Shown: positions 4,681 through 44,435 of the stretch, piece after piece
Numbering within the stretch: position 1 is the first letter of the stretch
Layout of the letters: each line of letters begins with the position of its first letter
DNA from: Pseudomonas phage pPa_SNUABM_DT01
Length of the DNA stretch: 64,000 nt
Sequence record: MW735835.1
Direction: 5' to 3' (one strand)
Notes under the pieces: model-generated
The model's input: the letters and a program-made list of their open reading frames with translations, nothing else
Databases searched by the model: none
What the model was told of the DNA's origin: nothing
Position numbers and translations under genes: made by a program

Positions 4681-6066
4681 ATGGAATTCTCCCAAACGCC
4701 CCTTGGAGCCGAATACGAGCTGATCATGCGTGAAGGCAAAGGCGTCTACTACATGTACGACGCCACTTTCGCGACTGAACGTGAGAATATTGACGCCTTG
4801 CAGGTGGTCAGTATGGATTTCATCCGGGATTACCGTAACTCGGCCTCGGATGAAATCCTCATCAAGCTCGTTGTGCCCTGGGGCCAGTACCTGAACCGGG
4901 TTCTGCCGTTCAAAGAGAACCTGAAGGTGACCATCACTCGCAGTGAAGTTGATACCGTGAGTGGTGAGATCGTCGGGACTCGGGTGGAACAGACGTTTAT
5001 CGCGTTTCTGCCGCCTGAGACCGAAACCGGCATGCTCGATAATAGCCCTGAGACGGCCACGGAGTTCTCCGCGGACATCTCAGGTCTCAAGATCGTGCAA
5101 GTCCAGTTGCAAGAAGAGGCATTCAGCCGTGCCCGTTCGGAAATGGTGGGTGGGGTTTTCCGGGATTCGTCACCTTACGAGGTTCTGATCAGCCTGCTGC
5201 ACAACTCCATCCGACAAATGGACTTGGAGATCGCTGAAAGGATCGTTGGGGTGCACGCAACTCCTCCGAACAACACGGCGAAGCGCGGCACTACCCTGAT
5301 TCCCCACGGCACGCCGCTTGTAGCGCTTGCTGACAAGCTGCAAACCCAGTTGGGCGGTATCTACACTGCCGGAATCGGCTGCTACTTGCAGAAGGGTTAC
5401 TGGCACGTCTGGCCGCTGTACAACTACAAGCTCTATGACTCGGCTGAACGTACGGCCTTGTTCATCCTGGCGCCGTCTGGACGGTATCGGGGTGTGGAGC
5501 GCACCTACCGCATGGTGGACAAACACCTGACGGTATTCATCACTGGTGAAGTCTTGCGGCAAGACCCCTCCGAGATCCTTCTGCTCAACGAAGGTAACGG
5601 GGTCCGGTTTGCCAACGCAGACGCGATGATGGAAGGCTTCTTCGAGGTCTCCGGAAACAAAGCCGTGGCAAAAAGAACAAACAACGCCAATGAGTACGAG
5701 GCAATCAATCGTAAAGGCGTTTCCATGTCCCGAATCACCGAGGATATGGCAACCACGAACAACTTTAACGAAGCCTCCAAAGTTGCTGCCCGTAACGGGG
5801 CGTTCATCACCATGAACTGGGAAAACAGTAACCCAGACCTCATCATTCCTGGATTGCAGTGTGAGATCGGTTTCCTTGTTGAAGGCGACGTCTGCTTCAT
5901 CAACGGGGTCGTAGTGCACGCGCACGGGTATTCGGCATTGTCGGGTACTGGCCTGCACCAACGGATGCACCAGATCACCACGGAAGTGGTGTGTATGGTC
6001 GACCGTCAGTCGCCTGTGTATGCGAAGTTCCTCTCCAGTCAACAAAGCAATTCAACACAAACGTAG
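4681..6066 (+). CDS. hypothetical protein (461 aa)
   Basis: Long ORF. The minus-strand ORFs inside it are shadows. Confidence 0.6.
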   Translation: MEFSQTPLGAEYELIMREGKGVYYMYDATFATERENIDALQVVSMDFIRDYRNSASDEILIKLVVPWGQYLNRVLPFKENLKVTITRSEVDTVSGEIVGTRVEQTFIAFLPPETETGMLDNSPETATEFSADISGLKIVQVQLQEEAFSRARSEMVGGVFRDSSPYEVLISLLHNSIRQMDLEIAERIVGVHATPPNNTAKRGTTLIPHGTPLVALADKLQTQLGGIYTAGIGCYLQKGYWHVWPLYNYKLYDSAERTALFILAPSGRYRGVERTYRMVDKHLTVFITGEVLRQDPSEILLLNEGNGVRFANADAMMEGFFEVSGNKAVAKRTNNANEYEAINRKGVSMSRITEDMATTNNFNEASKVAARNGAFITMNWENSNPDLIIPGLQCEIGFLVEGDVCFINGVVVHAHGYSALSGTGLHQRMHQITTEVVCMVDRQSPVYAKFLSSQQSNSTQT

Positions 6067-6111
6067 CACTACATTATCGTGGTGCAGTAACTCAACCTGA
6101 GGTCCACAGCT

Positions 6112-6834
6112 ATGTCTGAAAATCATACGCTGGGGATGGTAACCGTCAGGGCGGGAGAGATACTTACCTTCACATTCGACGAATCCACCCCTGAGAAGCG
6201 TCGGCACCTCACAGTCGTGGCCATCCAAGACATTGATCTAAGTCGTGAGATGGCCTTGTTCTGTCAGGCGACCAACAGAGCTGGTAAGGATATCTACACG
6301 GAGAACGCGCTGCCTGCGTTTATTCAGCATCTGGCAGAGAAGCGGCTCCTGCACGTCGGCAGGGAAGTAAGTGTGCACTTTGGCGACCGTGGTCGTCCTG
6401 CTGCACGACTTATGAATGAGTACAGGTTCAGGATCAACCCCGAATCTTACTGGGAGGACAAGCTGGTCAATCGATACACGACCAGCTCGTTCACGCTATT
6501 CAACCATCAACAGCACAGCCTCATGGTGATGATGGGCGTCGATGCCCCGTTTTACATCCTGGCTGATTTGCTGGACATGCAAGGAGAACCGCTCGGTGTA
6601 CTAAGGCTTTCAATTATACCCGATCAACGGCACACCTTCATCAGTCCCGACGACGTCGAGAGAATCCGGTTGGCCCTGCAAGCCGACATCGCAATGAATG
6701 TAGAAGAGATCAGTGTCATGGTGGAACGAGTCCGTGTGGCATCCAACCCTGACTTTGGTCAAAGCGTCTTCAAGCGTCACCTTCCACCCATCGAACATCC
6801 CCCTAAAGTTGAACCCGAGACATCCACTTCATAA
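6112..6834 (+). CDS. hypothetical protein (240 aa)
   Basis: ORF in the gene array. Confidence 0.5.
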   Translation: MSENHTLGMVTVRAGEILTFTFDESTPEKRRHLTVVAIQDIDLSREMALFCQATNRAGKDIYTENALPAFIQHLAEKRLLHVGREVSVHFGDRGRPAARLMNEYRFRINPESYWEDKLVNRYTTSSFTLFNHQQHSLMVMMGVDAPFYILADLLDMQGEPLGVLRLSIIPDQRHTFISPDDVERIRLALQADIAMNVEEISVMVERVRVASNPDFGQSVFKRHLPPIEHPPKVEPETSTS

Positions 6835-6845
6835 AGGAACAGTGC

Positions 6846-7190
6846 ATGACCACCCCCAACACGTCTTGGAAGAAACCCCGCCCGCAAGGTAACCGCGACG
6901 ATCGTCGTCCGGATCAGCGCCCGCAGCGTTCCAACAGCTTCGGCAGCCTGTCCAGCCTGCGGGAACTCTCCGAACGCCAACCGGTGCGTAAACCGCAAGT
7001 CCAGCCGGAACCCCTGAAGTTCGAGGGTCCGCTGAACCACTGGTATGAAACCGAGCGCAACGGCCGGAAGTCTAAAGTCTTCCTGGTCGAAGTGAAGAAG
7101 GACGTCGTGACTTACAAGGACAAGGTCGAGGACAAGCATTCCCAGACCATGTCCCTGGCGAAGTTCATGAAGTTCTACAAGCCGGAGTAA
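6846..7190 (+). CDS. hypothetical protein with a basic, disordered N-terminus (114 aa)
   Basis: ORF followed by a UUCG hairpin at 7201-7222. Confidence 0.5.
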   Translation: MTTPNTSWKKPRPQGNRDDRRPDQRPQRSNSFGSLSSLRELSERQPVRKPQVQPEPLKFEGPLNHWYETERNGRKSKVFLVEVKKDVVTYKDKVEDKHSQTMSLAKFMKFYKPE

Positions 7191-7197
7191 GACGTGG

Positions 7198-7225
7198 CTT
7201 GAGGGGGCCTTCGGGCCCTCTCTAT
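7198..7225 (+). terminator. hairpin GAGGGGGCC-TTCG-GGCCCTCTC
   Basis: Directly after the stop of 6846-7190. Confidence 0.5.
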
Positions 7226-7254
7226 GCCCTCTCGCCCAAACCACTGAGGTTGCT

Positions 7255-7536
7255 ATGAAAGCACAGTACGTAGTACTGCCGAGTGCGAAAGTGCCGGTAC
7301 GAGCTGGTCAGTTCTTTTCTTTGTCCAGCAAGTTGGACCCAAGCACCAAGGACAACTTCAAAGCCCTCGTGGACTTCGACATGGTCGAAGAGGCACTGAA
7401 GGCTGGTGTTGATCTGCACAAACCCGGCACCCCGACTGACAATGCTCGGGCCAACATGTCCATCGCTGCTCACCTCGTTCATTCGGGCTTGGCAGAAATT
7501 GTTGACAAGCCGAGTAAAAACAAACAAACACACTGA
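7255..7536 (+). CDS. hypothetical protein (93 aa)
   Basis: ORF after a terminator. RBS-like gaggttgctATG. Confidence 0.45.
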   Translation: MKAQYVVLPSAKVPVRAGQFFSLSSKLDPSTKDNFKALVDFDMVEEALKAGVDLHKPGTPTDNARANMSIAAHLVHSGLAEIVDKPSKNKQTH

Positions 7537-7561
7537 ATGGTGTGTATCAAAGGAGTTATCC

Positions 7562-7726
7562 ATGAAACCAGCCGATAAGGAGTTCGAGTCACGCGACGAG
7601 CTGGAAAAGGCTTACAGCGCCGGGTCTCTGAAGACCGGTGAGCGTTACTACGTTCGCAACATCAACGTCACCTATCGCCTTGACGTTACACGTAAAGGCT
7701 TTGTAGAAATCCCGAATAACCAGTGA
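7562..7726 (+). CDS. small hypothetical protein (54 aa)
   Basis: ATG at 7562 preceded by aaaggag. Internal start of the longer tracked ORF 7406-7726. Confidence 0.35.
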   Translation: MKPADKEFESRDELEKAYSAGSLKTGERYYVRNINVTYRLDVTRKGFVEIPNNQ

Positions 7727-7733
7727 GGCTGTA

Positions 7734-8084
7734 ATGGACCACGTGTATATCTGGTGGCTGGACAAATGGCTGCTGATGGCAACTCACATGTTGCTGGAAG
7801 AAGCTGACCGCGGCAATCATTCGATCAACATCCTCCCGGGCCACATCAAGATAGCGTTGGATCAGGCTTGCGGCAAGCACTACGGTGGTCAGCTGTACCC
7901 ACCGATCACCCTGGCCGGGAGTGTCAACCCCGACCACCTGGACGTCCTGCAACAAGAGCGCCAACTGGCGGCCATCCTGTCCAATGGCTGGTTCGGCGTT
8001 CCGTTCGAAGAAGTGCACCTGCCCACCATCAAGCAGTACCCGGGCATCATCACTACCTTTAGCCTTCAGGCGGTGCGGAAATGA
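7734..8084 (+). CDS. hypothetical protein (116 aa)
   Basis: ORF. Overlaps the next gene by 4 nt. Confidence 0.45.
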   Translation: MDHVYIWWLDKWLLMATHMLLEEADRGNHSINILPGHIKIALDQACGKHYGGQLYPPITLAGSVNPDHLDVLQQERQLAAILSNGWFGVPFEEVHLPTIKQYPGIITTFSLQAVRK

Positions 8085-8695
8085 TCAGTGCAATCGATTT
8101 CTTGGTCAAAGGCGGCGGGCAGTTCGAGATCATCAAGGCTGACCATTGCGAAGTAGGCCTGGTCAACCTGTTCCTCGACGTTTCCTCGGCCACCACCGTC
8201 AAGGATCGTTACGATCTGATCTTCACCCCGGGTAACAGCTTCGGTCACATGACCGGCGGTTTCGACCTGGGTGTGGTGGAAGTCTTCGGGCGTGAGATCC
8301 AGATGAAGGTCCTGGAGATGATCAAGCAGAAGTACAGCGGTATGATGCCGGTGGGCTCTGCTGAAGTCGTCCAGATTGGTAACCATGCCGTGGTCTATGT
8401 TCCGACCATGATGGTGCCGACTCGTAACACAGGCCTGATCGATCCGTACATGCTCATGTGGCAAGGTCTGCGTGCAGTTGATCAATTCACCAAAGATACC
8501 GGAATCCATTTCCGCCATGCCCTCTGTCCGTTGTTCTGTGCGGGCACTGGTGGGTCGGCTCCTGACGTGGCCCTCCATCAGCAGAACATGGCGGTCTACG
8601 AGCATCGTCTCTCTCGTTCCGGTGCTCACCTGGGCTGCACTGACCTGTTCAGTGATGGCATGATCCGTTACAACTCCTTGTTCCAAGGTAAGTGA
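8081..8695 (+). CDS. macro-domain protein (ADP-ribose binding/processing fold), 204 aa
   Basis: Motifs match macro-domain signatures. DLIFTPGNSFGHMTGGFDLGV aligns with DAIVNAANsslLGGGGVdgAI. VVYVPTM aligns with VIHaVGP. ALCPLFCAGTGGSAPD aligns with AFPAIStGvyGyP. Confidence 0.5.
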   Translation: MISAIDFLVKGGGQFEIIKADHCEVGLVNLFLDVSSATTVKDRYDLIFTPGNSFGHMTGGFDLGVVEVFGREIQMKVLEMIKQKYSGMMPVGSAEVVQIGNHAVVYVPTMMVPTRNTGLIDPYMLMWQGLRAVDQFTKDTGIHFRHALCPLFCAGTGGSAPDVALHQQNMAVYEHRLSRSGAHLGCTDLFSDGMIRYNSLFQGK

Positions 8696-9345
8696 TGGAC
8701 TTCTGGAAGGCGATGGGATGGGAGTGGAGCTTCACCTGGTGTGGGGTCGGCTCCCGTGATGTCCCGGAAGAATTCGAGCCTTTGTTGATTTGGGTAGGTC
8801 ATTGCATGGCGCTGTTGAAGGGTGTGTTGTGTACCGGTGATGCCACTGGTTCCGACTACCTCTTCTGGCAAGGCTATGAGCGCGGTAAGGCAGAGAACAT
8901 GCCACCTGCGCAGATCTACTACACCAAGCTGAAGAACATGCGTAGCCTCTCTCACGACCCATTTAAGGGCCATCATGAGGCTGAACGCTATGACACCCAT
9001 GCCGAGGCCCAAGCGCTCGCATTTCGCGCTCGTGGCTCGTTTGAAGGGCTATTCCCATCAGGCATCGGGCTCCACACCCGCAACGCTTTCCAAGTCTTGT
9101 CGGAAGAGTTGTGCTTCCCGCGTTGGATCACTGTGTTCTGGGCTAAACCTGTCGGTAAGAAAGGTTTGGTTTCCGGTGGTACCAACACGGCAGTACAGCT
9201 GTCCGTCATGAACAACATCAAGAAGGTCAACCTGTACGTTGAGGAGGACCGCATCAAGTTCGTCGAGTGGCTTAAAGGGCAGCTTGTCAAGAAAGGCATC
9301 CCAGTTCCGCCCCTCGACACACCCGAGCTGCCAATGGCAGCGTAG
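8692..9345 (+). CDS. SLOG/DprA-like Rossmann-fold protein (217 aa)
   Basis: CGVGSRDVPEE followed about 25 aa later by VLCTGDATGSDYLFWQG. This resembles the DprA/Smf-LOG motifs GxGSR and SGxAxGxD. Start overlaps the macro gene by 4 nt. Confidence 0.4.
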   Translation: MMDFWKAMGWEWSFTWCGVGSRDVPEEFEPLLIWVGHCMALLKGVLCTGDATGSDYLFWQGYERGKAENMPPAQIYYTKLKNMRSLSHDPFKGHHEAERYDTHAEAQALAFRARGSFEGLFPSGIGLHTRNAFQVLSEELCFPRWITVFWAKPVGKKGLVSGGTNTAVQLSVMNNIKKVNLYVEEDRIKFVEWLKGQLVKKGIPVPPLDTPELPMAA

Positions 9346-9354
9346 GAGAATCTC

Positions 9355-9630
9355 GTGGATGACCGCATTATTGTAGTGGGTACCGATCATGGCTCTGCGA
9401 TGGAGCAACTCCGTAAGATCGCAGATTGTGAACGACCGTTGCCGGCACCTGCCATTGTGTTGGCTCCTGGCATTGAGCTGAAGCAACACCAGAGCCTCAC
9501 CACTCTGTGCCGCGAAGCCGGCTATAAGGTCACCGACATGATCGGTGGCATGGGTGTCATTCCCGACAAAAAGAAAGAACGGCCAGTGATCAAGGCAATG
9601 AGCCTGGCCGAGTTGTTCAAACTCAAATAA
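9355..9630 (+). CDS. hypothetical protein (91 aa), GTG start
   Basis: aggag RBS 6 nt upstream of GTG. Confidence 0.4.
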   Translation: MDDRIIVVGTDHGSAMEQLRKIADCERPLPAPAIVLAPGIELKQHQSLTTLCREAGYKVTDMIGGMGVIPDKKKERPVIKAMSLAELFKLK

Positions 9631-9642
9631 CCTGGGGGCTGC

Positions 9643-10317
9643 ATGCTTCGTTATCAACCGACACACAAGGGCTTCTTGCTCGCAATCGAAGGACCGGATG
9701 GGGCGGGCAAGTCTACCCTGCGTACCTGGCTGAGCGACTGGTTCCAGTCCCACGGCATTACTGCGGTGATCACCCGTGAACCAGGCGGCACGCCTGAAGC
9801 CGAGATGATCCGTCAGGATATCCTGCGTAAGCGCGAACCCCATGAAGAACCTGTCTGTGCTTTGACCCAAGCGTTGAAGTTCATGGCTGCTCGTGCCCAG
9901 CACATCGACCGTGTGCTGAAACCTAACATCGTTGCGGGCGAGTTGGTCATCACTGACCGCTTCTGCGACAGCACCTTCGCGTACCAGAGCCAGGAGGGTG
10001 TGGACCTTGGCAAGCTGCGTGCTATGCATGACGTGGCGTTTGACGGGTTCAAGCCAGACCTGACCATCTTGCTCGACGGGGACCCCAACATCTTCCGTGA
10101 GCGTATGGCAGGCCGTGGTGAAGGCGCCTTGAACTTCTACGACCTCAAGCCCATGTCGTTCCATGAACAGTCTCGCCGGGTCTACAGCGAGTGTGCTTCG
10201 ATGGATGCCAACCGTTACGCGGTGATCGACGCGACCCAGAACTTCGAACAGGTTCAGGCACAGATCATCCCGTACCTGATGGACATCGACGCCTGGCTGC
10301 GTAAACGCCCAGCATAA
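9643..10317 (+). CDS. tmk: thymidylate kinase (dTMP kinase)
   Basis: P-loop IEGPDGAGKSTL and DRF motif (ITDRFCDSTFAYQ). Lid arginines present. Length 224 aa, typical of Tmk. Confidence 0.85.
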   Translation: MLRYQPTHKGFLLAIEGPDGAGKSTLRTWLSDWFQSHGITAVITREPGGTPEAEMIRQDILRKREPHEEPVCALTQALKFMAARAQHIDRVLKPNIVAGELVITDRFCDSTFAYQSQEGVDLGKLRAMHDVAFDGFKPDLTILLDGDPNIFRERMAGRGEGALNFYDLKPMSFHEQSRRVYSECASMDANRYAVIDATQNFEQVQAQIIPYLMDIDAWLRKRPA

Positions 10318-10324
10318 CCCAGAA

Positions 10325-10348
10325 GAGTGGAGGGATGACCCCTCCACT
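10325..10348 (+). terminator. hairpin GAGTGGAGGG-ATGA-CCCTCCACTC
   Basis: 10-bp perfect stem after the tmk stop, followed by CTTTGCCC. Confidence 0.5.
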
Positions 10349-10370
10349 CCTTTGCCCTTAGGAGGGTATT

Positions 10371-10703
10371 ATGTCCATCATCATGACCACCATTTTGGCC
10401 GGTGAAGAAGAGCCCATGCAGCCTGTGGGTATCGATCCACACGGCACTCATCGGTTCCTCGAGAATCGCATCGTTCGTGACCTGCTGGACTTTGCATCTC
10501 CCCGTGGCTTCGACCTGAACCACATTGCAGTCCGTGGTCATGAAGGCCACTACTCTGATTCCGAGCATCGTCAGATGGCGCAGCTGATCGGTTACAGCGT
10601 TTGCGGTTACGGCACGTTGTCGTATGTCAATGATGCTTCGTACGAGGAAGCCTGGCGGCGGAGCCAAGCCCTCGAATCGGAAGACGATCCGAAAGAAGAG
10701 TGA
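10371..10703 (+). CDS. hypothetical protein (110 aa)
   Basis: ORF after hairpin 10325-10348. ggaggg RBS. Confidence 0.45.
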   Translation: MSIIMTTILAGEEEPMQPVGIDPHGTHRFLENRIVRDLLDFASPRGFDLNHIAVRGHEGHYSDSEHRQMAQLIGYSVCGYGTLSYVNDASYEEAWRRSQALESEDDPKEE

Positions 10704-10743
10704 TCCTACATTACACCAATACAGTCACCTAGGAGAGACAGGA

Positions 10744-11139
10744 ATGTCTAACACCCGCGCTGAAGAGTTGGCTCTCGCCGTATCCTCGATAGAGACCAAC
10801 GTCAACACCATCGAAGCATTGGTCGGTCAAGCGTACGCCAATGCTGATTTCAACTTCGTTACTGATTTCCGTGATTCCCGTGGCGCCAGCCTGGCTGAGT
10901 CCGGCGCCATCATGGGGGTCCTTGTCCGCCGTATGCAGGAGAACCTCAACTCCCTGGCGAACGTGCTTTACATTCGTGAACTGGAATCCCAACGGGAAGC
11001 CGTACCATGGCGTGAAATGGCAAAGGAAAACCGTCGTGTGGAAGCCATCTCGATGCTGCGCAAGTTCGCCAGCAATATCAGTTTCAGTGTCGGAGACGCT
11101 CGTGATGTGGTAGATGCCTACCTCAAACACGGTTTCTGA
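10744..11139 (+). CDS. hypothetical protein (131 aa)
   Basis: ATG with taggagagacaggaATG RBS. The longer tracked ORF start would overlap the upstream gene. Confidence 0.45.
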   Translation: MSNTRAEELALAVSSIETNVNTIEALVGQAYANADFNFVTDFRDSRGASLAESGAIMGVLVRRMQENLNSLANVLYIRELESQREAVPWREMAKENRRVEAISMLRKFASNISFSVGDARDVVDAYLKHGF

Positions 11140-11227
11140 CCACCCGGAATAGGTAGAGCAGACCTAAGGCCATATACTGGTATAAACCGTTTTGGATGCT
11201 CAAACCAACATCAATCGGAGAAACACC

Positions 11228-12265
11228 ATGCATACCACTCAAACCACCCACCATCGTATCTTCGCTACCAATCTCGGCGGGTCTGTGCTCGACGATGTAA
11301 TGGCGGGCATTGGCGCAGACTTCACTGGTGACGCTGGGGTATTTGACCTCGTCATCGCTGAGGGGGACGACTTCTCGCTGGACACCGTCATCCGTGACAT
11401 GTTCCCAGCACGTCTGCTTCCTGACACCGCAGAAACCCCGTGGCACGTCGATCTGGGTGTCCTGGCTGAAAAGCTGGGCGAACTCTGCGAGCAGGAGGGC
11501 TACAAGCCTCAGACTGGCATGTTCACCCGCAAGTACTACGAGGACGGCGTCCAGGCTTCCTGTGACATCTCCTGCATCGAACTGATGGACCTGCTGATGG
11601 CTTTGGCGGGCAACCATTATAAGATCGAAGGTATCTACACCCAGTGGGCGATGCACAGCGACAAAGCGCAGTTTGGTGCTCACGCTGGTGGTACCCGCAT
11701 CACCACCCGCCACTTCTCGGTGCCGTGCTTCACTCCGCCGGATCGGGCAGAGACCGTGATCAAGACTCTGGCCAAGCACAAGCTGTGCGAAGTCGGCGAC
11801 TACTTCGTCAACGAGTTCATCAACCCGATCCTGGATTGTGTCCCGGAAGGTCCGATGCAGGGTGCAGTGGAGCGTGCTGCCATTCGTTTTATGGGTGGCT
11901 ATCGTGCACCGGTGTCCGAAGGCTTCCTGGCCAGTGTGTCTGAGCCTGCGGATAAGTCCGACGTGGCAGGAAACGAGGTGCCGGTGTTCGGTGGGGTCCC
12001 GATGGAGAAAACCGGTAAAGACTGGACCGTTCGTGATCTGGACTACTACCGTAACTGGAACTTCAGGCAGGTTGGCATCCTCTCTGGGATTTCGGTGACT
12101 GAGGAAGACGCCATCTTCTACATCGACTGGTTCGGTCTGAAACTTTCCGACTACCTGCACAATCAGCTGAAACTGCCAGCAGACTACGTGGCTACCGTCA
12201 AGGACATCCGTTCTCGTCTGCTCGCTGGTGAAGAACTCACCATCCCGAATCGCGAAAACAAGTGA
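11228..12265 (+). CDS. hypothetical protein (346 aa)
   Basis: Long ORF. ggag RBS before the ATG at 11228 (alternative ATG at 11192). Hairpin terminator at 12274-12299. Confidence 0.5.
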   Translation: MHTTQTTHHRIFATNLGGSVLDDVMAGIGADFTGDAGVFDLVIAEGDDFSLDTVIRDMFPARLLPDTAETPWHVDLGVLAEKLGELCEQEGYKPQTGMFTRKYYEDGVQASCDISCIELMDLLMALAGNHYKIEGIYTQWAMHSDKAQFGAHAGGTRITTRHFSVPCFTPPDRAETVIKTLAKHKLCEVGDYFVNEFINPILDCVPEGPMQGAVERAAIRFMGGYRAPVSEGFLASVSEPADKSDVAGNEVPVFGGVPMEKTGKDWTVRDLDYYRNWNFRQVGILSGISVTEEDAIFYIDWFGLKLSDYLHNQLKLPADYVATVKDIRSRLLAGEELTIPNRENK

Positions 12266-13020: not shown

Positions 13021-13701
13021 ATGAGCAGACCTGTCATTGATCTCATCGGGCAGCGTTTCAACATGTGGACGGTTAAAGATCTCCATAAGAACCGCTCTAA
13101 AGATGGGGGTTCTCGATGGGTCTGTGAGTGTGATTGTGGGGCGACCGGGGTGGTCTCTCGGCGCAACCTGGTTACAGGAAAATCCAAGTGTTGCGGCTGT
13201 TATGTCAGTGCGGAAGGGCTAGCCAATATCAGTCAGGCTAATTTCGTGCACGGCATGCGGACATCTCCAGAATACACCGCTTGGGCGGCGATGGTGCAAC
13301 AATGCACTAATCCAAAGCACATCGACTTTTGGAGATACGGCGGGTCTGGAATCGGGATCGTCCCAGAATGGGAGGCGGACTTCGAGAACTTTCTTACCGA
13401 CATGGGCCTACGACCCTCACCGTTGCATCGGCTCGAACGTATCGACGATACGCAGGGGTTCTCCAAGGATAACTGTCAATGGTCCATGACAGCCCACAAG
13501 AAAAGAAAGATCGATTATACTGGAACCCACACAATCCATGGCGAAGACCTCACCCTCCTTGAGATCGCTGAAAAATACAAGGTGCATTATTTTCGATTGC
13601 GGTACCGAGTCGCTAAGAAGGGACAGGCTGCTATCGATGCACTCAATGAATTACTGGAGCTAAAGAAAACATATGTCGCAGAAACTCTACATCGAGAATA
13701 A
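13021..13701 (+). CDS. putative homing-endonuclease-like / zinc-ribbon DNA-binding protein (226 aa)
   Basis: N-terminal CxCxCG...CCGC cysteine cluster. It also carries the phage endonuclease-associated signature YTAWAAMVQQCTNPKHIDFWRYGGSGIGI...DMGLRPSPLHRLERIDDTQGFSKDNCQW. This corresponds to the YxxWxxMxxRC...YGGRGI...DMG...LDRID...NCRW family commonly annotated as HNH/AP2-type homing endonuclease. Confidence 0.4.
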   Translation: MSRPVIDLIGQRFNMWTVKDLHKNRSKDGGSRWVCECDCGATGVVSRRNLVTGKSKCCGCYVSAEGLANISQANFVHGMRTSPEYTAWAAMVQQCTNPKHIDFWRYGGSGIGIVPEWEADFENFLTDMGLRPSPLHRLERIDDTQGFSKDNCQWSMTAHKKRKIDYTGTHTIHGEDLTLLEIAEKYKVHYFRLRYRVAKKGQAAIDALNELLELKKTYVAETLHRE

Positions 13702-16419: not shown

Positions 16420-16911
16420 TTGTCTATGGATCGAACTCCCCTGGCGCTTTGGGCTAAGCACCTCATAAGGGCCGCCATTGACTACTTCAATGAACGCTCG
16501 ACCAAAGCCTGTCTTATCGTTGACAACACCATTCTCAAGGATGGGGTCCTGGCCGCAATGGCTCAGGAGAACAACAGCAGTGACTTCATTGTCTGTGTCG
16601 CACCGGGTTTCACCACCCAGTTAGATTTCGGAGACGCTGATCTGACCATCAGTGTGAAGTTCCACGATGCTGCCCATTCAATGGTCATCCCGTACCACGC
16701 GATTCGTGCAGTGATTGCTGCCGACAGCGGTGGTGTGCTGACCGAGAACGGCCACATTAACATCATCAGCGTCCCGCCGGTTGTGTACCCGCCTGCGTCC
16801 CGCTACCGTAATGAAGAAGAACTGGACAAGATTGCTCAGCAAGTGGTAGAGGAAGAAGTCCATGCCCAGCCCACGCAGTCTGAGCTTCAGCTAGTTGTAC
16901 GGAGATCATGA
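16420..16911 (+). CDS. SspB-like protein, second paralog (163 aa)
   Basis: FIVCVAPGFTTQLDFGDADLTISVKFHDAAHSMVIPYHAIRAVIAADSGG aligns with the SspB core IVLNIAPRAVGNLELANDEVRFNARFGGIPRQVSVPLAAVLAIYARENGAG. N-terminal PLALWAKHLIRAAIDYF resembles SspB PRRPYLLRAFYEWL. C-terminal LQLVVRRS resembles the XB tail LRVVK. Confidence 0.45.
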   Translation: MSMDRTPLALWAKHLIRAAIDYFNERSTKACLIVDNTILKDGVLAAMAQENNSSDFIVCVAPGFTTQLDFGDADLTISVKFHDAAHSMVIPYHAIRAVIAADSGGVLTENGHINIISVPPVVYPPASRYRNEEELDKIAQQVVEEEVHAQPTQSELQLVVRRS

Positions 16912-19999: not shown

Positions 20000-21424
20000 T
20001 TGATGATTCCGCAGAACTTGCTCGCTCTTAACGAGAACTTCATGACCCCGACCGACGACGTGTATCACGGCCTGATCGAGGACGTGCTCACCAACGGCAA
20101 CTACAAGGGTGACCGTACCGGTACCGGCACCTTCGCCGTCGTGGGCCGTATGGCTCGTTACAACCTGATGAACGGCCGTAGCCCTCGACCGACCACCAAG
20201 GCCATGAGCGACAACCCCGAACGCGAACTGTTGTGGTTCCGCAATGGTTCGTCTTCCATCAAAGAGCTACGTGACCAGAAAATCGGCATCTGGAACAGCT
20301 GGTTGATGCCTGGCTCGGCCAAGTACCGCCCGATGACCGTGGAAGAGATGAAACCCGGTATCATCAAGCATTACAAAGAGCAGGGTTACGACGACGTCGA
20401 GTTCGCTCCATATGCTGAAGGCGATGAAGACGTCACCGGTAAGTGGTTCACCGAGACCGGCATCAATCTCAACCCGAATGAAAAGACGCCCAAGGTGCGC
20501 ACGGTAGGTTATGCTGGCACGGCTGATCTGGCTGATTTCTACGCATGGCTATTGAGCATGAAAGCTCAAGTGCTGGTCGATGGTGATATCGGTCCTGGTG
20601 GCTACGGTCCTCAATGGCGCCACTGGCAGGACACTCAGCTCATCGACGAGAGCGAACTGCCAGCATACCAAGCTCAAGGTTACCAGCACGTCATCGACGT
20701 GCGTGACAGCGAAGCCTTCTATGGCAAGGTTGTGGTACACCGTGAGATCGACCAGCTGGCCAATGCGATCAAGCTGCTCCGTGAGGACCCGAACAGTCGG
20801 CGCATCATCGTGACTGCCTGGAACCCGGCACTGACCTGGAAAGCCGCTCTGCCTCCGTGCCACCTGTACTTCCAGTTCATCTCCCACGAGCTGACCTTGG
20901 AGCAGCGTTACATCATCGCCAAGGACCGTATGCTGCTCGAGAAGTACGACATCGCTCGTCATGAACAGCAAACCGGCATGATGGACTGCGCCCTGCGCAC
21001 CTGGAACGAATACGACATCCAGATCGACCGTCGTCACAAGACCGATGAAGAACTGCATGTCGTGATGGATCAGTTGCAGATCCCTCGCCGTGGCCTGTAC
21101 GGCTTCGTTCTGCTGCGTTCCAACGACCTCGGCCTGGGACAGCCGTTCAACGTCGCTCAGTACGCCAGCCTGACTCACATGGTCGCCCAGTGTGTCGGCA
21201 TGGCTCCGCTCGAACTGGTCTGGACTGCCGTGGATGCTCACGTGTATTCCAACCACGTCGAGGCACTGCGCGAACAGCTGGAACTCGAGTCCAAGGAATG
21301 TATCCCGCGGATCGTTCTGACCAAAGGCATCACCGACATCGACGCGTTCACCATCTCCGACATCAAGATCATTGACCACGAGATGCACAAGGCGCTGTCG
21401 GACAAGATGCCAGTCGCCGTCTGA
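20000..21424 (+). CDS. thyA: thymidylate synthase family enzyme (ThyA-like) with an internal insertion of about 200 aa
   Basis: N-terminal GDRTGTGT, ELLWF, GIWNSW. Catalytic RRIIVTAWNPAL...LPPCHLYFQF. C-terminal LRSNDLGLGQPFNVAQYASLTHMVAQ...DAHVYSNH. At 474 aa it is roughly 200 aa longer than canonical ThyA. Confidence 0.8.
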   Translation: MMIPQNLLALNENFMTPTDDVYHGLIEDVLTNGNYKGDRTGTGTFAVVGRMARYNLMNGRSPRPTTKAMSDNPERELLWFRNGSSSIKELRDQKIGIWNSWLMPGSAKYRPMTVEEMKPGIIKHYKEQGYDDVEFAPYAEGDEDVTGKWFTETGINLNPNEKTPKVRTVGYAGTADLADFYAWLLSMKAQVLVDGDIGPGGYGPQWRHWQDTQLIDESELPAYQAQGYQHVIDVRDSEAFYGKVVVHREIDQLANAIKLLREDPNSRRIIVTAWNPALTWKAALPPCHLYFQFISHELTLEQRYIIAKDRMLLEKYDIARHEQQTGMMDCALRTWNEYDIQIDRRHKTDEELHVVMDQLQIPRRGLYGFVLLRSNDLGLGQPFNVAQYASLTHMVAQCVGMAPLELVWTAVDAHVYSNHVEALREQLELESKECIPRIVLTKGITDIDAFTISDIKIIDHEMHKALSDKMPVAV

Positions 21425-24067: not shown

Positions 24068-25378
24068 ATGGAAGTATTTCTGGTAGGTGGGTTTGTCCGG
24101 GATACACTTCTCGGACTCTCGCCGAACGATCGCGACTATGTCGTGGTTGGAGAAAGCCCAGAAAGCATGCTGGCGAAGGGGTTCACCCAAGTGGGTGGCC
24201 ACTTCCCGGTATTCTTGCATCCCGAAACCCAAGAAGAATATGCCCTGGCCCGGCAAGAGGTGAGCACCGGTGACGGTTACGGTGACTTCACCTATAACTG
24301 GGACGGGGTGTCGCTCGAGATGGACTTGAGCCGTCGTGATTTGACGATCAATGCCATGGCGATTGACACCAACGGTGAAGTGGTAGACCTGTTTGGAGGG
24401 GTAGCTGACCTCAACGCACGACTACTGCGGCACGTAGGTCCTGCATTCGTTGAAGACCCGTTACGGATCATGCGTGTGGCTCGTCTGTCTGCGGTATTGG
24501 GCTTCGACATCGCGTACGAAACCATGGCCCTCATGAAAGAAATGGTGGCCAAGGGCATGCTTCAGGCGTTACCGGGCGAACGCGTGTGGAAAGAGACTGA
24601 GAAGGCTCTGCTCAGCAAAGAACCGAGTCGGTATTTCAAGGTGCTGAAGGAATGCGGTGCTCTCCATGTCTGGTTCCCTGAACTGGACTTGATGGATCGT
24701 GTCCCGCAGCGTCCTGATTACCACGCTGAAGGCGATGTCTGGGTGCACACCCTGATGGTGCTGGATGAATCGGTGCCGCTGACCATGCATTTGGATCGTG
24801 AGCGTTGCTTGCGAGTGCGTTACGCCACGTTGACGCATGACTTCGGTAAGCTGGGCACACCGCAGAAGCTCTTGTGGGCAGATGACGGTGAGTTGCTGGG
24901 CAAACACCATGGTCATGAGGACCCAGATCGCTTTGGTCCGTTCCTGATGGCCTTCTCCAACCGGATTAAGGTGCCTACTCGCCTGCGTAAGTTCGCTCAT
25001 GTCGTGTCGGTCATTCATCAGAATGTCCACTCGATCAAGAAGATGTCTCCTAAGGGCCTGGTGTCGTTGTTCGACAAGGTCGGCGGTAACCGTTCCATTC
25101 GCGATGATGAATACTACCTGGAAGATCTCTCGATCGCCTGCTTGGCTGATAGCCTCGGTAGGCTGATAACCAAAGAAGATGGGTCGCTGGCTCAGATTCC
25201 CGGGTATCCTCAAGGCCAGTACTTCATCGACACCATGACACTCATCAACAACGTCGATGCTGGCGAGATCATGCAGAAAGAACTGGCCAAACGATGGCCG
25301 GTGAAGAAAGCACTGGAGAGCGTCCGGTCTGCTCGCAGTAAGGCAGTCGCTCCCTACGTCCGATCCCATAAATCTTAG
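24068..25378 (+). CDS. cca: CCA-adding tRNA nucleotidyltransferase (class II, head domain + HD domain)
   Basis: GGFVRDTLLGLSPNDRDYVV (GGxVRD...DxD polymerase head motif). ERVWKE body region. HD motif HTLMVL...ATLTHDFGK. Length 436 aa. Confidence 0.8.
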   Translation: MEVFLVGGFVRDTLLGLSPNDRDYVVVGESPESMLAKGFTQVGGHFPVFLHPETQEEYALARQEVSTGDGYGDFTYNWDGVSLEMDLSRRDLTINAMAIDTNGEVVDLFGGVADLNARLLRHVGPAFVEDPLRIMRVARLSAVLGFDIAYETMALMKEMVAKGMLQALPGERVWKETEKALLSKEPSRYFKVLKECGALHVWFPELDLMDRVPQRPDYHAEGDVWVHTLMVLDESVPLTMHLDRERCLRVRYATLTHDFGKLGTPQKLLWADDGELLGKHHGHEDPDRFGPFLMAFSNRIKVPTRLRKFAHVVSVIHQNVHSIKKMSPKGLVSLFDKVGGNRSIRDDEYYLEDLSIACLADSLGRLITKEDGSLAQIPGYPQGQYFIDTMTLINNVDAGEIMQKELAKRWPVKKALESVRSARSKAVAPYVRSHKS

Positions 25379-25386
25379 GAGTCCGT

Positions 25387-25884
25387 ATGGACCGTGAGTT
25401 TCTTGCTGAAATCGATCCTATCATCGCACAGATCAAGTCCGATGATGCAGGCAACTACGTCTTCCACCCGACCGAGAAGTCGTACGCCCTGATCCTGATC
25501 GACCGTACCATCGACATCTACGCTCGCATCCAGCACACCGGCCTGCAAGAGGCCATGAAGGACATGTGCGGCGTATTCGACCTCGTGTACGAGCCGCCGC
25601 AGGGCTGGAAGCTGAACGGGGTGTCATCGTTCTCGATCACTCTGATCGGCCAACGTGTCGACGTGTCGCTCGAGTTCTCCCGACACAACCCTGAAGACTC
25701 GAGCGTCATCGAGAAGGACCGGAAGGACTACGTGATCGAGCTGGCGAACTTCGCCGAGCGTGTCTACCTGTGTCGTATCCTCAGTGGCATCAATGTCAAC
25801 ATGCCTGTACACCGTAACCGTCAGCTGGACTTCGTGTTCACGTACGACGGTAAGGAACTGGCTATCAGTAAGCCGGGGGAGTGA
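25387..25884 (+). CDS. hypothetical protein (165 aa)
   Basis: ORF between the CCA and HD genes. Overlaps the next gene by 4 nt. Confidence 0.45.
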   Translation: MDREFLAEIDPIIAQIKSDDAGNYVFHPTEKSYALILIDRTIDIYARIQHTGLQEAMKDMCGVFDLVYEPPQGWKLNGVSSFSITLIGQRVDVSLEFSRHNPEDSSVIEKDRKDYVIELANFAERVYLCRILSGINVNMPVHRNRQLDFVFTYDGKELAISKPGE

Positions 25885-26525
25885 TGAACCACTTTCTTAC
25901 TCGTCTGGAAGGTAAGCTGCTGGTAGTCCTTGAGACGAATCCCAGTGCTAACCTTCCATACCACAACAACGAACACATGAAACAGATGTGGGCGCTGGCC
26001 AGGACCATCTGGGAACGTGAGGAGGAAGATGTCGGTCTGGGCGATTCCACTTGGAACTACGTGGTGCTGATGTTCGCCTGCCTGTTCCATGATTGGGATC
26101 ATTCCGGTGGCCACGACTCCGATCACTACAACGTGCTCCGGGCTCGTGAGTTCGTCGAAGAGCTGATCGCCAAGAATGGTTACACCCTCCCGGGGCGTGT
26201 CATCAAGGCGATTGACGATGCGATCGCCGTGACCGAGTTCCCCTTCGTTATCCAGCCGAAGAATCGACTGGAAGCAGTGATTCGCGATGCGGACTCACTG
26301 TATGCCACTCATCGTCGCGACCCTACCGTCATCATTGACGGCTTGCGTCAAGAGATGGAAGTCAAGTTTGGCAATGCGATCTCTGACCAGCAGATGCTGG
26401 ACGGTCATATCGACTTCATGGCCAAGACCACCATGTTCACCAAAACCGCCCACGATATCTGGGCTGCCAACGCGCAGCCGTTCGTGGAAGACCTGAAACG
26501 CTACGTTAAAGAACGAGGTAATTGA
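25881..26525 (+). CDS. HD-domain phosphohydrolase (214 aa)
   Basis: NNEHMKQMW (His) and CLFHDWDHSGG (HD) metal-binding motifs. Confidence 0.6.
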   Translation: MMNHFLTRLEGKLLVVLETNPSANLPYHNNEHMKQMWALARTIWEREEEDVGLGDSTWNYVVLMFACLFHDWDHSGGHDSDHYNVLRAREFVEELIAKNGYTLPGRVIKAIDDAIAVTEFPFVIQPKNRLEAVIRDADSLYATHRRDPTVIIDGLRQEMEVKFGNAISDQQMLDGHIDFMAKTTMFTKTAHDIWAANAQPFVEDLKRYVKERGN

Positions 26526-42440: not shown

Positions 42441-44435
42441 ATGGACAACCGCATCGAAGCCCTGCGGGCAGAGATCAGTCGTCTGAACGATCTCTACTAC
42501 AACGAAGGGGATTCCGGCGTCGAAGATGCCGTGTACGATTCCCTGAAGAAGGAACTGCGGGAACTCGAAGGTGAAACCGACGACCCGCTGTCCCCTCTGA
42601 ACATCATCGGGGCTCCCGTCGCCGGGGGCTTCGATAAAGTCAAGCACCTGACCCCCATGCAGAGCCTGGGCAACGTGTATAACGAGACTGAACTCACCGA
42701 CTGGTGTGACAATCTCGAGTATCCGGCCTGCGCTCAGATGGAACTCAAGCATGACGGCCTGGCCATTGACCTGCTGTACGACAAGACTCACCTGAAGTAT
42801 GCCGCTACCCGCGGCGACGGTGAAGTCGGTGATGATATCACCGATAACGCCATTTACTTCGAGGGTGTGCCAGAGCAGCTGCGTGGTTTCAGCGGTAAAG
42901 TTGAAATCCGTGGTGAAGCTGTCATCCCGCACAAGCACTTCAAGCGTGTTTGTGAACTGCGTGAGTCGCTGGGCAAGAAAGTCTACGCCAACCCCCGCAA
43001 CATGGTGGCTGGACTGGCTCGCAAAAAGGAAGGAGCGGAGCTGCAAGGCATGGGCATCCGCTTCATCGCCTACGATGCAGTCATTCACACCGACGAAGGC
43101 CCGCTTTCGGTGCCGATGTCGTACTTCCAGCAGGATCTTCAGAGCCAGTTCTACATCTCTCTGCCGGTCTGGGAGGGTTTGACCAGCGATATCGTCAACA
43201 TCGTCGAAACAATCGACGACGTAGCCGAGACTCGTGAGACCCTAGGGCATGACATTGACGGCTTGGTACTGAAATTGATCAAGCCTGAAGACCGCAAAGC
43301 CCTCGGCAGCCGTTCTACCAGCCCGCGATGGGCCGTGGCGTACAAGTTCGAAGCCCAGACCACGACCTCAGTGCTGCAAAGCGTCGAATTGCAGGTCGGT
43401 CGTACCGGGGCCATCACCCCAGTGGCCAAGATCAAGCCCGTCAAGCTCTGCGGTGTGACCATCAGCAGCGTGACGCTTCACAATTTCGAAGAAATCGAGC
43501 GGTTGGACCTCCGTCTGCTCGACACGGTTGTCGTTTCCCGTCGTGGCGACGTCATCCCGAAGATCGAAAGCGTGATCACGGCTCTGCGTACTGACGAACA
43601 CGGCATCATCCCCATTCCCACGGAGTGTCCGTGCTGTGGGGCGCCGTTGAGCAAGAAGGAAGTGGGCAAAGAAGAAGGTGTGAAGCTGTACTGCACCAAC
43701 TCCGTCACCTGTCCTGCTCAGGTCATCAACAAAATGGCCTACTTTGTCAGCCGCGATGGCATCGACGTGAAGAACCTCGGCCCAGCCGCCGTCGAATCCT
43801 TGATTGTGTCGGGTTCGTTGGGGTCGTTCAGCTCGTTGTTCCACCTGACCGAGTCGGATTTCTACAACGCTGGCATCGGGGAAGCCATGACCGACAAGAT
43901 CATGGCCAGTATCGAACGCTGCAAGAAGCTGCCGTTCAAGAAAGTCCTGCGTGCTGTCGGTATCCCGGAAGTCGGCGACTCCACTGCTCGTGATTTGGCG
44001 TTGTTCTACTCGTCGTTCAAGGAGTTGTTCGAAGCCAAGGCTGAAGACATTGAACGAATCCCGGACATCGGCCCTGCGGTCTCTGCAAGCCTCGCTAAGG
44101 CGTTCGAATCCAATGGCGCCGATTACCTGGCCTTGGATAAGATCCTCACCTACGAGGCTGATACGGTCCTTAAAGCCGAGATTCAGGACCTCGCCGGCAA
44201 AACTGTGGTGGTGAGTGGCAGTGACTTCGATGGTAAGTCGCGCAAGGAGATGGAAGCCGACGTGATTTCGCGTGGTGCTAAGCTCTCCAAGTCCGTCAGC
44301 AAGAAAACCGACATCCTCTTCGCAGGTATTGGTGCTGGCCCAGACAAAGTCAAGACCGCCAAAGAGCTGGGGTTCGTCGTTGATGGCATCATGATGACCA
44401 ATCCCAATTCCCTCACTCGCATTCTTCCTCTGTAA
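42441..44435 (+). CDS. ligA: NAD-dependent DNA ligase
   Basis: Adenylation motif ELKHDGLAIDLLY (KxDG). OB fold. Zn-finger CPCCGAPL...C...C. HhH region. C-terminal BRCT (GKTVVVSGSDFDGKSRKEME...). Length 664 aa. Confidence 0.85.
   Translation: MDNRIEALRAEISRLNDLYYNEGDSGVEDAVYDSLKKELRELEGETDDPLSPLNIIGAPVAGGFDKVKHLTPMQSLGNVYNETELTDWCDNLEYPACAQMELKHDGLAIDLLYDKTHLKYAATRGDGEVGDDITDNAIYFEGVPEQLRGFSGKVEIRGEAVIPHKHFKRVCELRESLGKKVYANPRNMVAGLARKKEGAELQGMGIRFIAYDAVIHTDEGPLSVPMSYFQQDLQSQFYISLPVWEGLTSDIVNIVETIDDVAETRETLGHDIDGLVLKLIKPEDRKALGSRSTSPRWAVAYKFEAQTTTSVLQSVELQVGRTGAITPVAKIKPVKLCGVTISSVTLHNFEEIERLDLRLLDTVVVSRRGDVIPKIESVITALRTDEHGIIPIPTECPCCGAPLSKKEVGKEEGVKLYCTNSVTCPAQVINKMAYFVSRDGIDVKNLGPAAVESLIVSGSLGSFSSLFHLTESDFYNAGIGEAMTDKIMASIERCKKLPFKKVLRAVGIPEVGDSTARDLALFYSSFKELFEAKAEDIERIPDIGPAVSASLAKAFESNGADYLALDKILTYEADTVLKAEIQDLAGKTVVVSGSDFDGKSRKEMEADVISRGAKLSKSVSKKTDILFAGIGAGPDKVKTAKELGFVVDGIMMTNPNSLTRILPL

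Follow-up and report, generated by a model that had tools for sequence, protein, structure and literature searches.

The systems closest to the locus considered here, a macrodomain (macro) gene followed by a SLOG gene at positions 8081 to 9345 of a 64-kb genome stretch (the window; all positions are window coordinates), are known partly from prediction and partly from experiment. Iyer, Burroughs, Anantharaman and Aravind (2022) predicted computationally that neighbourhoods of DNA viruses in which SLOG, Macro and NADAR domains co-occur process diffusible ADP-ribose derivatives, and assigned the viral SLOGs linked to nicotinamide adenine dinucleotide (NAD+) mainly to the YpsA-like clade (PMC9503650). 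A DprA/Smf-type SLOG was described by Iyer et al. (2021) as conserved in group 1/2 jumbo phages and suggested to be an extra single-stranded DNA (ssDNA)-binding protein (PMC7824862). The same two superfamilies provide the ThsA sensors of Thoeris, SLOG in type I and Macro in type II, both of which bind ADP-ribose-derived signals. Among phage macrodomains, AdfM (PhiKZ gp104, PhiPA3 gp108), a protein imported into the phage nucleus, strips DarT2-derived ADP-ribose from DNA (PMC13309987), and Tk.4 of T4 does the same anti-DarT job (10.1101/2025.11.20.689424). The window shows the association predicted for viruses, a stand-alone Macro beside a stand-alone SLOG in a large phage, except that its SLOG is of the DprA clade, most likely the same family as was noted in phiKZ-type phages. 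Given that the Macro-SLOG neighbourhood is already predicted for viruses and that anti-defence macrodomains of phages are established for other subfamilies, what is new here is a presence/absence polymorphism of the macro gene at a fixed slot, a Ymx7-type macro family distinct from AdfM, and a fusion of SLOG to the Nlig-Ia domain. The reading tentatively preferred, at somewhat under an even chance, is that the locus combines two separably evolving genes, an accessory Ymx7-type ADP-ribose-1''-X hydrolase and a core nucleotide-binding SLOG protein. The features of the locus are:

7734..8084, + strand: ORF116, a conserved open reading frame (ORF) of 116 amino acids, no Pfam or PHROG match, kept in 13 related loci

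8081..8695, + strand: macrodomain protein of 204 amino acids, putatively of Macro_2/Ymx7 type, accessory gene (Pfam, PHROG, AlphaFold2 (AF2) and PDB profile)

8695..9345, + strand: SLOG protein of 216 amino acids, single domain, assigned to the DprA clade, core gene (PHROG, family Pfam and AF2)

9355..9630, + strand: ORF of 91 amino acids between SLOG and tmk, kept in some relatives only

9643..10317, + strand: tmk, thymidylate kinase (PF02223, E 4.7e-40), conserved downstream neighbour of SLOG

All three signature blocks on which the initial annotation had based its macrodomain call can be read in the translation: D45-L-I-F-T-P-G-N52-S-F-G-H-M-T-G59-G60-F-D62-L-G-V, which fits DxIxxxxNSxxxxxGGxDxxV, a VVYVP strand and a CPLFCAGTGG loop. 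Profile searches agree with that call. Pfam Macro_2 (PF14519) matches the protein itself at E 8.7e-6 (25.7 bits, gathering cutoff 27 bits) and all 19 aligned members of its family (best E 2.8e-8), phrog_2613 matches at E 5.7e-28, and the sole significant match of the family profile in the PDB is yeast Ymx7/YMR087W (1njr, E 2e-12, residues 44-180). Structure prediction of the two proteins as monomers, also proposed at that stage, returned the expected folds, the macro model (predicted local distance difference test, pLDDT, 92.5) being a three-layer alpha/beta/alpha macro fold and the SLOG model (pLDDT 95.2) a Rossmannoid SLOG fold in which a Gly-rich loop follows strand 1 and a GG-x-x-T loop is also present. 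Across the 19 macro sequences N52-SFGHMT-G59-G60-F-D62 (N-x6-GG-F-D) is invariant, as are Y106, P108, T109 and G155, the last lying in the second Gly-rich loop, G155-T-G-G. On alignment with Ymx7, Asn52 and Asp62 of the phage protein fall at Asn80 and Asp90; Kumaran and colleagues are said to have proposed, in 2005, that Asn80, Asp90 and His145 are the catalytic residues of Ymx7. A Ymx7-type, ADP-ribose-1''-phosphatase-like protein in which the catalytic Asn and Asp appear intact is the assignment that the alignment supports. In the literature YMR087W is placed in a 'Macro-2 type' clade that converts ADP-ribose-1''-phosphate to ADP-ribose, with no de-mono-ADP-ribosylating (de-MARylating) activity (PMC6397177). 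The phage protein nevertheless differs from Ymx7: it is shorter (204 against 284 amino acids) and 22% identical, it carries the invariant Tyr106 where Ymx7 has a His before its VPT motif, and it is viral and accessory, with no tRNA-splicing or KptA context evident in the window. Homologues of the macro family occur in 44 GenBank phage records and include PhiPA3 gp271 (family hidden Markov model, HMM, E 3e-39, 122.7 bits); the fusion partners seen in the family (SDR, WD40 and HD_4) are uninformative.

It is conceivable that this macrodomain does the work of AdfM, clearing phage ssDNA of DarT-derived ADP-ribose while the DprA-like SLOG holds the ssDNA. Phage macrodomains with such a role do exist in PhiKZ and T4, and the SLOG is of the DprA clade. 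However, this is very unlikely for three reasons: first, BLASTP of the macro protein against PhiKZ gp104 gave E 2.1 and the macro family HMM scored Tk.4 at 0.2 bits and PhiKZ gp104 at -0.9 bits, so that no homology to either is apparent and the identification of the macro protein as AdfM was rejected. Second, the residue that follows P108-T109, which by motif alignment takes the position of the catalytic Lys of DarG (K80) and AdfM (K78), is Met110 in 18 of the 19 sequences; neither a Lys near it nor R115, which follows the second PT, is conserved. Third, in a localisation screen of PhiPA3 proteins tagged with green fluorescent protein, gp271 was 'diffuse cytoplasmic' whereas gp108 was 'nuclear' (PMC10643120 Supplementary Table 3), the nucleus being where the phage DNA resides, and PhiPA3 from which gp108 has been deleted is DarTG2-sensitive although gp271 is retained; gp271 thus does not replace AdfM in PhiPA3. 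The reversal of DarT-like DNA ADP-ribosylation that the initial annotation had offered as one function of the locus is therefore unlikely. The absence of a relationship to AdfM, together with the localisation of gp271, instead indicates that chimalliviruses carry a second, distinct macrodomain family, which is apparently cytoplasmic. A cytoplasmic homologue argues for a soluble, protein- or RNA-linked ADP-ribose substrate and not for phage DNA.

The SLOG protein carries GVGSR at residues 18-22 and TGDATGSD at residues 48-55, with Thr where the SGxAxGxD signature has Ser, and its match to phrog_768 'DprA-like' (E 1.5e-32) and its predicted fold uphold the superfamily assignment that had been made from these motifs. 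The window protein has no Pfam match of its own; among 42 members of its family, 14 match DprA (PF02481, best E 1.4e-9) and none matches the LOG (PF03641), YpsA or YAcAr models. The family profile finds only DprA chains in the PDB at E<0.05 (E 0.007-0.04), and the Rossmann domain of bacterial DprA/Smf (PDB 4ljk, 3maj, 3uqz) is the best relative in both fold and sequence, at ~11-12% identity. By sequence the SLOG is thus placed in the DprA clade and not in the ThsA/YpsA or LOG clades. Invariant across the 42 sequences are G20, G49, A51, D55, R130, N131, G162-G163-T164-N165-T166 and N180, and R22 of the GxGSR loop is kept in 40. These invariant motifs match the GSR, GxAxGxD and RN motifs of DprA, and the GGT-x-TA loop lies where DprA has an S/G-G-S/T loop. 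The protein belongs to the family of phiKZ gp207, PhiPA3 gp249 and 201phi2-1 gp321, which has homologues in 512 GenBank phage records and is most likely the jumbo-phage SLOG of Iyer et al. (2021). Literature searches on phiKZ gp207, 201phi2-1 gp321 and 'DprA-like' proteins of phages brought up no study of the family's function.

These relationships raise the possibility that the SLOG is a minimal DprA-like ssDNA-binding mediator or DNA-metabolism factor, an analogue of UvsY serving UvsX/RecA, and that the adjacency of the macro gene is meaningless and marks a permissive junction. Besides the DprA matches and motifs, this possibility has behind it the proposal made for group 1/2 jumbo phages (PMC7824862), the setting of the SLOG gene of Nankokuvirus Epa26, which a DNA ligase and a PcrA helicase flank, the location of PhiPA3 gp249 near ORFs annotated RecX-like and MutL-like, and the presence/absence polymorphism of the macro gene. 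It is to be taken seriously but is nonetheless judged unlikely. DprA is built as SAM - Rossmann - DML1/winged helix, whereas the phage SLOG is a single compact domain (most relatives ~200-220 amino acids) with neither a SAM nor a C-terminal DML1/winged-helix domain and with a family-specific insertion of ~55 residues (residues 66-120); some phage orthologues are moreover fused to an NAD+-binding domain, unlike the bacterial DprA comparison set, a feature not easily squared with ssDNA binding alone. Nor is the protein strongly basic, its isoelectric point being 7.0 and the family median 8.3. In PhiPA3, gp249 is absent from the phage proteins enriched >3-fold by RecA- and ChmA-miniTurboID and so is not enriched near the nuclear RecA, a negative result that speaks weakly against a role close to RecA, and SLOG always stands beside tmk, whose homologue in Erwinia phage RAY, gp311, is cytoplasmic. 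The nuclear 'DprA-like' protein of RAY, gp153 (L099:8630-9511), does not help the case: it is unrelated to the SLOG family (BLASTP E>4, hhalign probability 0.1%), and transfer of its nuclear site to the SLOG was rejected on that ground. Two unrelated proteins, RAY gp153 and the phiKZ gp207 family, thus share the label 'DprA-like' in chimalliviruses.

Whether the two genes form a unit was examined from their distribution. A megablast of positions 7000-11000 against 50,697 phage records gave no match, so that the phage is novel at the DNA level and the context of the locus was taken from metagenome contigs. Homologues of the macro and SLOG proteins were found on metagenomic contigs of 240-310 kb that carry phiKZ inner-body proteins, which assigns the window to a new jumbo phage of phiKZ-like (chimallivirus) type. 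Related loci were collected from metagenome contigs and IMG/VR, and homologues of macro, SLOG, tmk, thyA and the flanking ORFs were mapped on them, giving a syntenic set of 14 distinct genomes, the window included, in which the SLOG of the relatives is 63-75% identical to that of the window. The gene order they share is ORF116 - [macro] - SLOG - (0-2 small ORFs) - tmk. All 14 have SLOG and tmk; macro is present in six (the window, L001, L006, L007, L008 and L009) and absent from eight (L003, L004, L019, L021, L022, L024, L025 and L026). In seven of the eight macro-minus genomes ORF116 directly abuts SLOG, L003 having an unrelated ORF of 165 amino acids at that point, and the macro family HMM, run over all six-frame ORFs of the macro-minus loci, found no degraded macro remnants. 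In a neighbour-joining SLOG tree the genomes with macro make up two separate subclades, and genomes that lack it are nested beside them, a patchiness that would fit an accessory or arms-race gene; in the same genomes macro identity is 46-52% against 66-75% for SLOG. The conserved association is consequently that of SLOG with tmk, macro being an accessory gene in a fixed slot, and this presence/absence polymorphism is a new point. It also reverses the view of the initial annotation that macro and SLOG next to tmk are a non-standard arrangement, since SLOG-tmk is the conserved part within the clade. ORF116, which stands directly upstream of [macro]-SLOG in 13 related loci, may be the real conserved partner of the SLOG gene.

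The pair had been read as a translationally coupled module that processes ADP-ribose- or NAD-based signals, the two ORFs overlapping by 4 nucleotides. As a counter-defence module, the SLOG would capture or cleave Thoeris signals of the glycocyclic ADP-ribose (gcADPR) type and the macro protein histidine-linked ADP-ribose (His-ADPR) or the linearised product. Both ORFs are present on the + strand and overlap as stated, although two start sites are available for SLOG, ATG 8695 (216 amino acids, a 1-nucleotide TGATG overlap with macro) and GTG 8692 (217 amino acids). Given that homologues begin MDFW, MELW or MDLW and that the 99%-identical P0023 has 216 amino acids, ATG 8695 is the more likely start, and the overlap is then of 1 nucleotide. 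Overlaps of 1 or 4 nucleotides occur at 11 of the 94 gene junctions of the window, among them the 4-nucleotide overlap of ORF116 (7734-8084) with the start of macro, and the stop/start overlap of macro and SLOG is not distinctive. A promoter and terminator scan of 6000-11500 found nothing above shuffled expectation.

In favour of such a module, macro and SLOG remain adjacent, with a stop/start overlap, in the window, in L001/L002 and in L009, the Macro-SLOG-NADAR neighbourhoods predicted for DNA viruses in PMC9503650 would act on just such diffusible derivatives, some SLOG orthologues are fused to Nlig-Ia, and a cytoplasmic macro homologue suits soluble signals. A dedicated module is nevertheless improbable. 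SLOG occurs without macro in eight of the 14 genomes, and in three of the six that have both (L006, L007 and L008, at ~5600-5935) an ORF of ~105 amino acids with two long hydrophobic stretches, membrane-protein-like, intervenes. Farther afield the homologues lie apart: PhiPA3 has gp271 at 246.4 kb but gp249 at 231.2 kb (~15 kb), and in Xanthomonas phage RTH11 the two genes are at 127 kb and 59 kb (68 kb). Many macro-bearing phages, such as the P2-like SEN4/5, Sinorhizobium phages and phiRSL1, belong to genera not named in the listed breakdown of the GenBank SLOG matches, and the 120 SLOG relatives listed, of 227, include no fusion of SLOG to macro. While the NAD-linked viral SLOGs are assigned mainly to the YpsA-like clade (PMC9503650), that of the window falls in the DprA clade. 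A PADLOC scan matched neither protein, and in full-text literature searches no characterised Thoeris inhibitor from a phage was a macro or SLOG protein; those found were the Tad1 and Tad2 sponges and the enzymes with RyR domains. Given that SLOG is kept without macro in most relatives, the pair is a facultative association and not an obligate module. What stands of the module claim is its ADP-ribose/NAD theme, through the Ymx7-type macro and the Nlig-Ia fusions; the dedicated pair does not.

The fusions come from the same 120 listed SLOG relatives, nearly all of which are stand-alone proteins of ~200-225 amino acids. Longer clusters among them are P0127, P0129, P0130 and P0131, of 298-312 amino acids. 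The N-terminal 70 residues of P0127, P0129 and P0131 score above the gathering cutoff against Nlig-Ia (PF22745, 'DNA ligase-like, N-terminal NAD+-binding domain'), with E 3e-11 to 5e-9; for P0130 the domain is taken from precomputed Pfam annotation. The fused genes lie between tmk and thyA, the same slot as unfused SLOG in neighbouring chimallivirus lineages, and two of them were mapped in sister chimallivirus lineages:

L101:6001-6897: Nlig-Ia-SLOG fusion (P0131)

L102:6001-6903: Nlig-Ia-SLOG fusion (P0129)

In the ligase LigA, aromatic and Asp positions are reported (Sriskanda and Shuman, 2002) to contact nicotinamide mononucleotide. On inspection of the sequences, these positions appear retained in the fusions and likewise in the N-terminus of the DNA ligase of the window. 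That enzyme is a full-length NAD-dependent DNA ligase at 42441-44435 (+), whose Ia-like N-terminus LYYNEGDSGVEDAVYD does not reach E 0.01 against Pfam Nlig-Ia; its presence implies that the phage depends on NAD+ for ligation. A further relative, P0081, has a divergent N-terminal extension similar in length to the Nlig-Ia of the fusions. An HMM built from the N-termini of the fusions and run against the small ORFs upstream of SLOG matched only the fusions themselves, and ORF116, which also lacks a Pfam match, and the other small upstream ORFs were rejected as stand-alone Nlig-Ia proteins. Solo Nlig-Ia proteins were noted in 81 phages by Iyer et al. (2022) and considered likely NAD+ sensors; in the passages retrieved there is no mention of the Nlig-Ia-SLOG fusion, and it is new here. 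Fusion to Nlig-Ia and adjacency to macro in six genomes provide two independent contextual links of the SLOG family to NAD+- or ADP-ribose-binding domains.

The neighbourhood of SLOG could also be taken to indicate a role in the pyrimidine-nucleotide pool with tmk and thyA, for instance as a (deoxy)nucleoside monophosphate N-glycosidase of the LOG/PpnN or DNPH1 type, in which case macro would be unrelated. All 14 close relatives have tmk beside SLOG, in seven more distant loci (L005, L029, L032, L037, L042, L101 and L102) tmk and thyA flank it, and a dCTP deaminase is found 3-4 kb downstream in phiKZ-type phages. This is scarcely probable, however: the catalytic Glu of the LOG motif PGGxGTxxE is replaced at Q169 (Q in 36, K in 3, R in 2 and M in 1 of 42 sequences), no member of the family matches the LOG Pfam model, and the neighbourhood could reflect conserved chimallivirus synteny only.

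Starting from the observed folds, motifs, family membership, synteny and fusion, it is suggested that the preferred pair of separable genes would work as follows. The accessory macro protein, probably cytoplasmic if PhiPA3 gp271 is a fair proxy, would bind ADP-ribose, and its Asn52/Asp62 pair would most likely hydrolyse a substituent at the 1'' position, candidates being a phosphate, an acyl group, or an ester-linked protein or RNA end. Its substrates might arise from RES-type NAD+ phosphorylases, KptA-type RNA repair, sirtuin-type reactions or ester-type ADP-ribosylation of protein or RNA ends, and in a putative counter-defence role it would clean up or neutralise NAD+-derived products of infection or of host defences. 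The SLOG would bind a nucleotide through its GxGSR / GDAxGxD / RN / GGTNT pocket; from its context the ligand is plausibly of NAD+ or ADP-ribose type, and the protein could sense, sequester or cleave it. The two proteins may act on related small molecules without depending on each other. A bolder claim, distinctly unlikely though not negligible, is that the gp207-family SLOG is an NAD+/ADP-ribose-binding or -cleaving protein and not a recombination mediator, and that with the optional macro it would form a cytoplasmic pathway against NAD+-derived immune signals or toxic ADP-ribose-1''-phosphate, which would make it a widespread counter-defence family mislabelled 'DprA-like'.

Several observations weigh against the suggested pair of a 1'' hydrolase and an NAD+- or ADP-ribose-binding SLOG. 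On the macro side, His145, reportedly part of the active site of Ymx7, is replaced by Tyr106 in the phage family, the cytoplasmic site is carried over from a homologue, gp271, that is only ~30% identical, and no KptA, 2H, Nudix or NAD-salvage gene was matched among 48 window proteins scanned with Pfam or PHROGs, so that a classical source of ADP-ribose-1''-phosphate is not evident in the window. On the SLOG side, the nearest relatives in sequence and structure are DprA proteins, which are ssDNA binders, and only a single small lineage has the Nlig-Ia fusion. In other phage families the neighbours of SLOG are an ATP-dependent ligase, a PcrA helicase, a dCMP deaminase or unrelated genes, and no NAD+ genes were found near it in those examined; the neighbourhoods in Nankokuvirus, Phapecoctavirus and Krischvirus are inconsistent and hence uninformative.

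Elsewhere in the window, where GC content is ~55% and nearly all long ORFs are on the + strand, PHROG matches include phiKZ-type virion proteins, a long thymidylate synthase, a CCA-adding enzyme and the NAD-dependent DNA ligase. The thymidylate synthase (20000-21424, +) has 474 amino acids and, compared with the PHROG profile, contains a long internal insertion, a form shared with PhiPA3 gp274 and phiKZ gp235. At 24068-26525 (+) a CCA-adding tRNA nucleotidyltransferase is followed by an ORF of 165 amino acids and then by an HD-domain protein with a 4-nucleotide overlap, and despite the CCA-adding enzyme ARAGORN found no tRNA genes in the 64 kb. An HNH homing-endonuclease-like gene lies at 13021-13701 (+; phrog_374, E 7e-49) and a GIY-YIG/I-TevI-like endonuclease gene at a similar position in L001 (13898-14542), which suggests a hotspot for mobile endonucleases. 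A weak SspB-like match (E 0.0025) was seen at 16420-16911 (+); in PhiPA3 the SspB-like gp270 (L098:4669-5457) is immediately upstream of the macro homologue gp271, and in L003 an SspB-like gene is also near the SLOG-tmk locus.

Chimalliviruses are a model for phage counter-defence, in which recent work showed AdfM to remove DarT2 ADP-ribosylation from DNA in the phage nucleus, and a second, apparently cytoplasmic macrodomain family suggests another ADP-ribose substrate, one that is not DNA. The locus further calls into question the label 'DprA-like DNA recombination-mediator protein' that is given in many of the 512 SLOG-bearing GenBank phage records, for which the Nlig-Ia fusion offers a concrete and testable alternative, namely that SLOG has an NAD+-derived ligand. 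These hypotheses are cheap to test and the SLOG family is very widespread. Should immune signals or toxic NAD+ metabolites prove to be processed by either protein, a new enzymatic counter-defence family would be gained; if not, the outcome would be a cleaner annotation of two common jumbo-phage genes.

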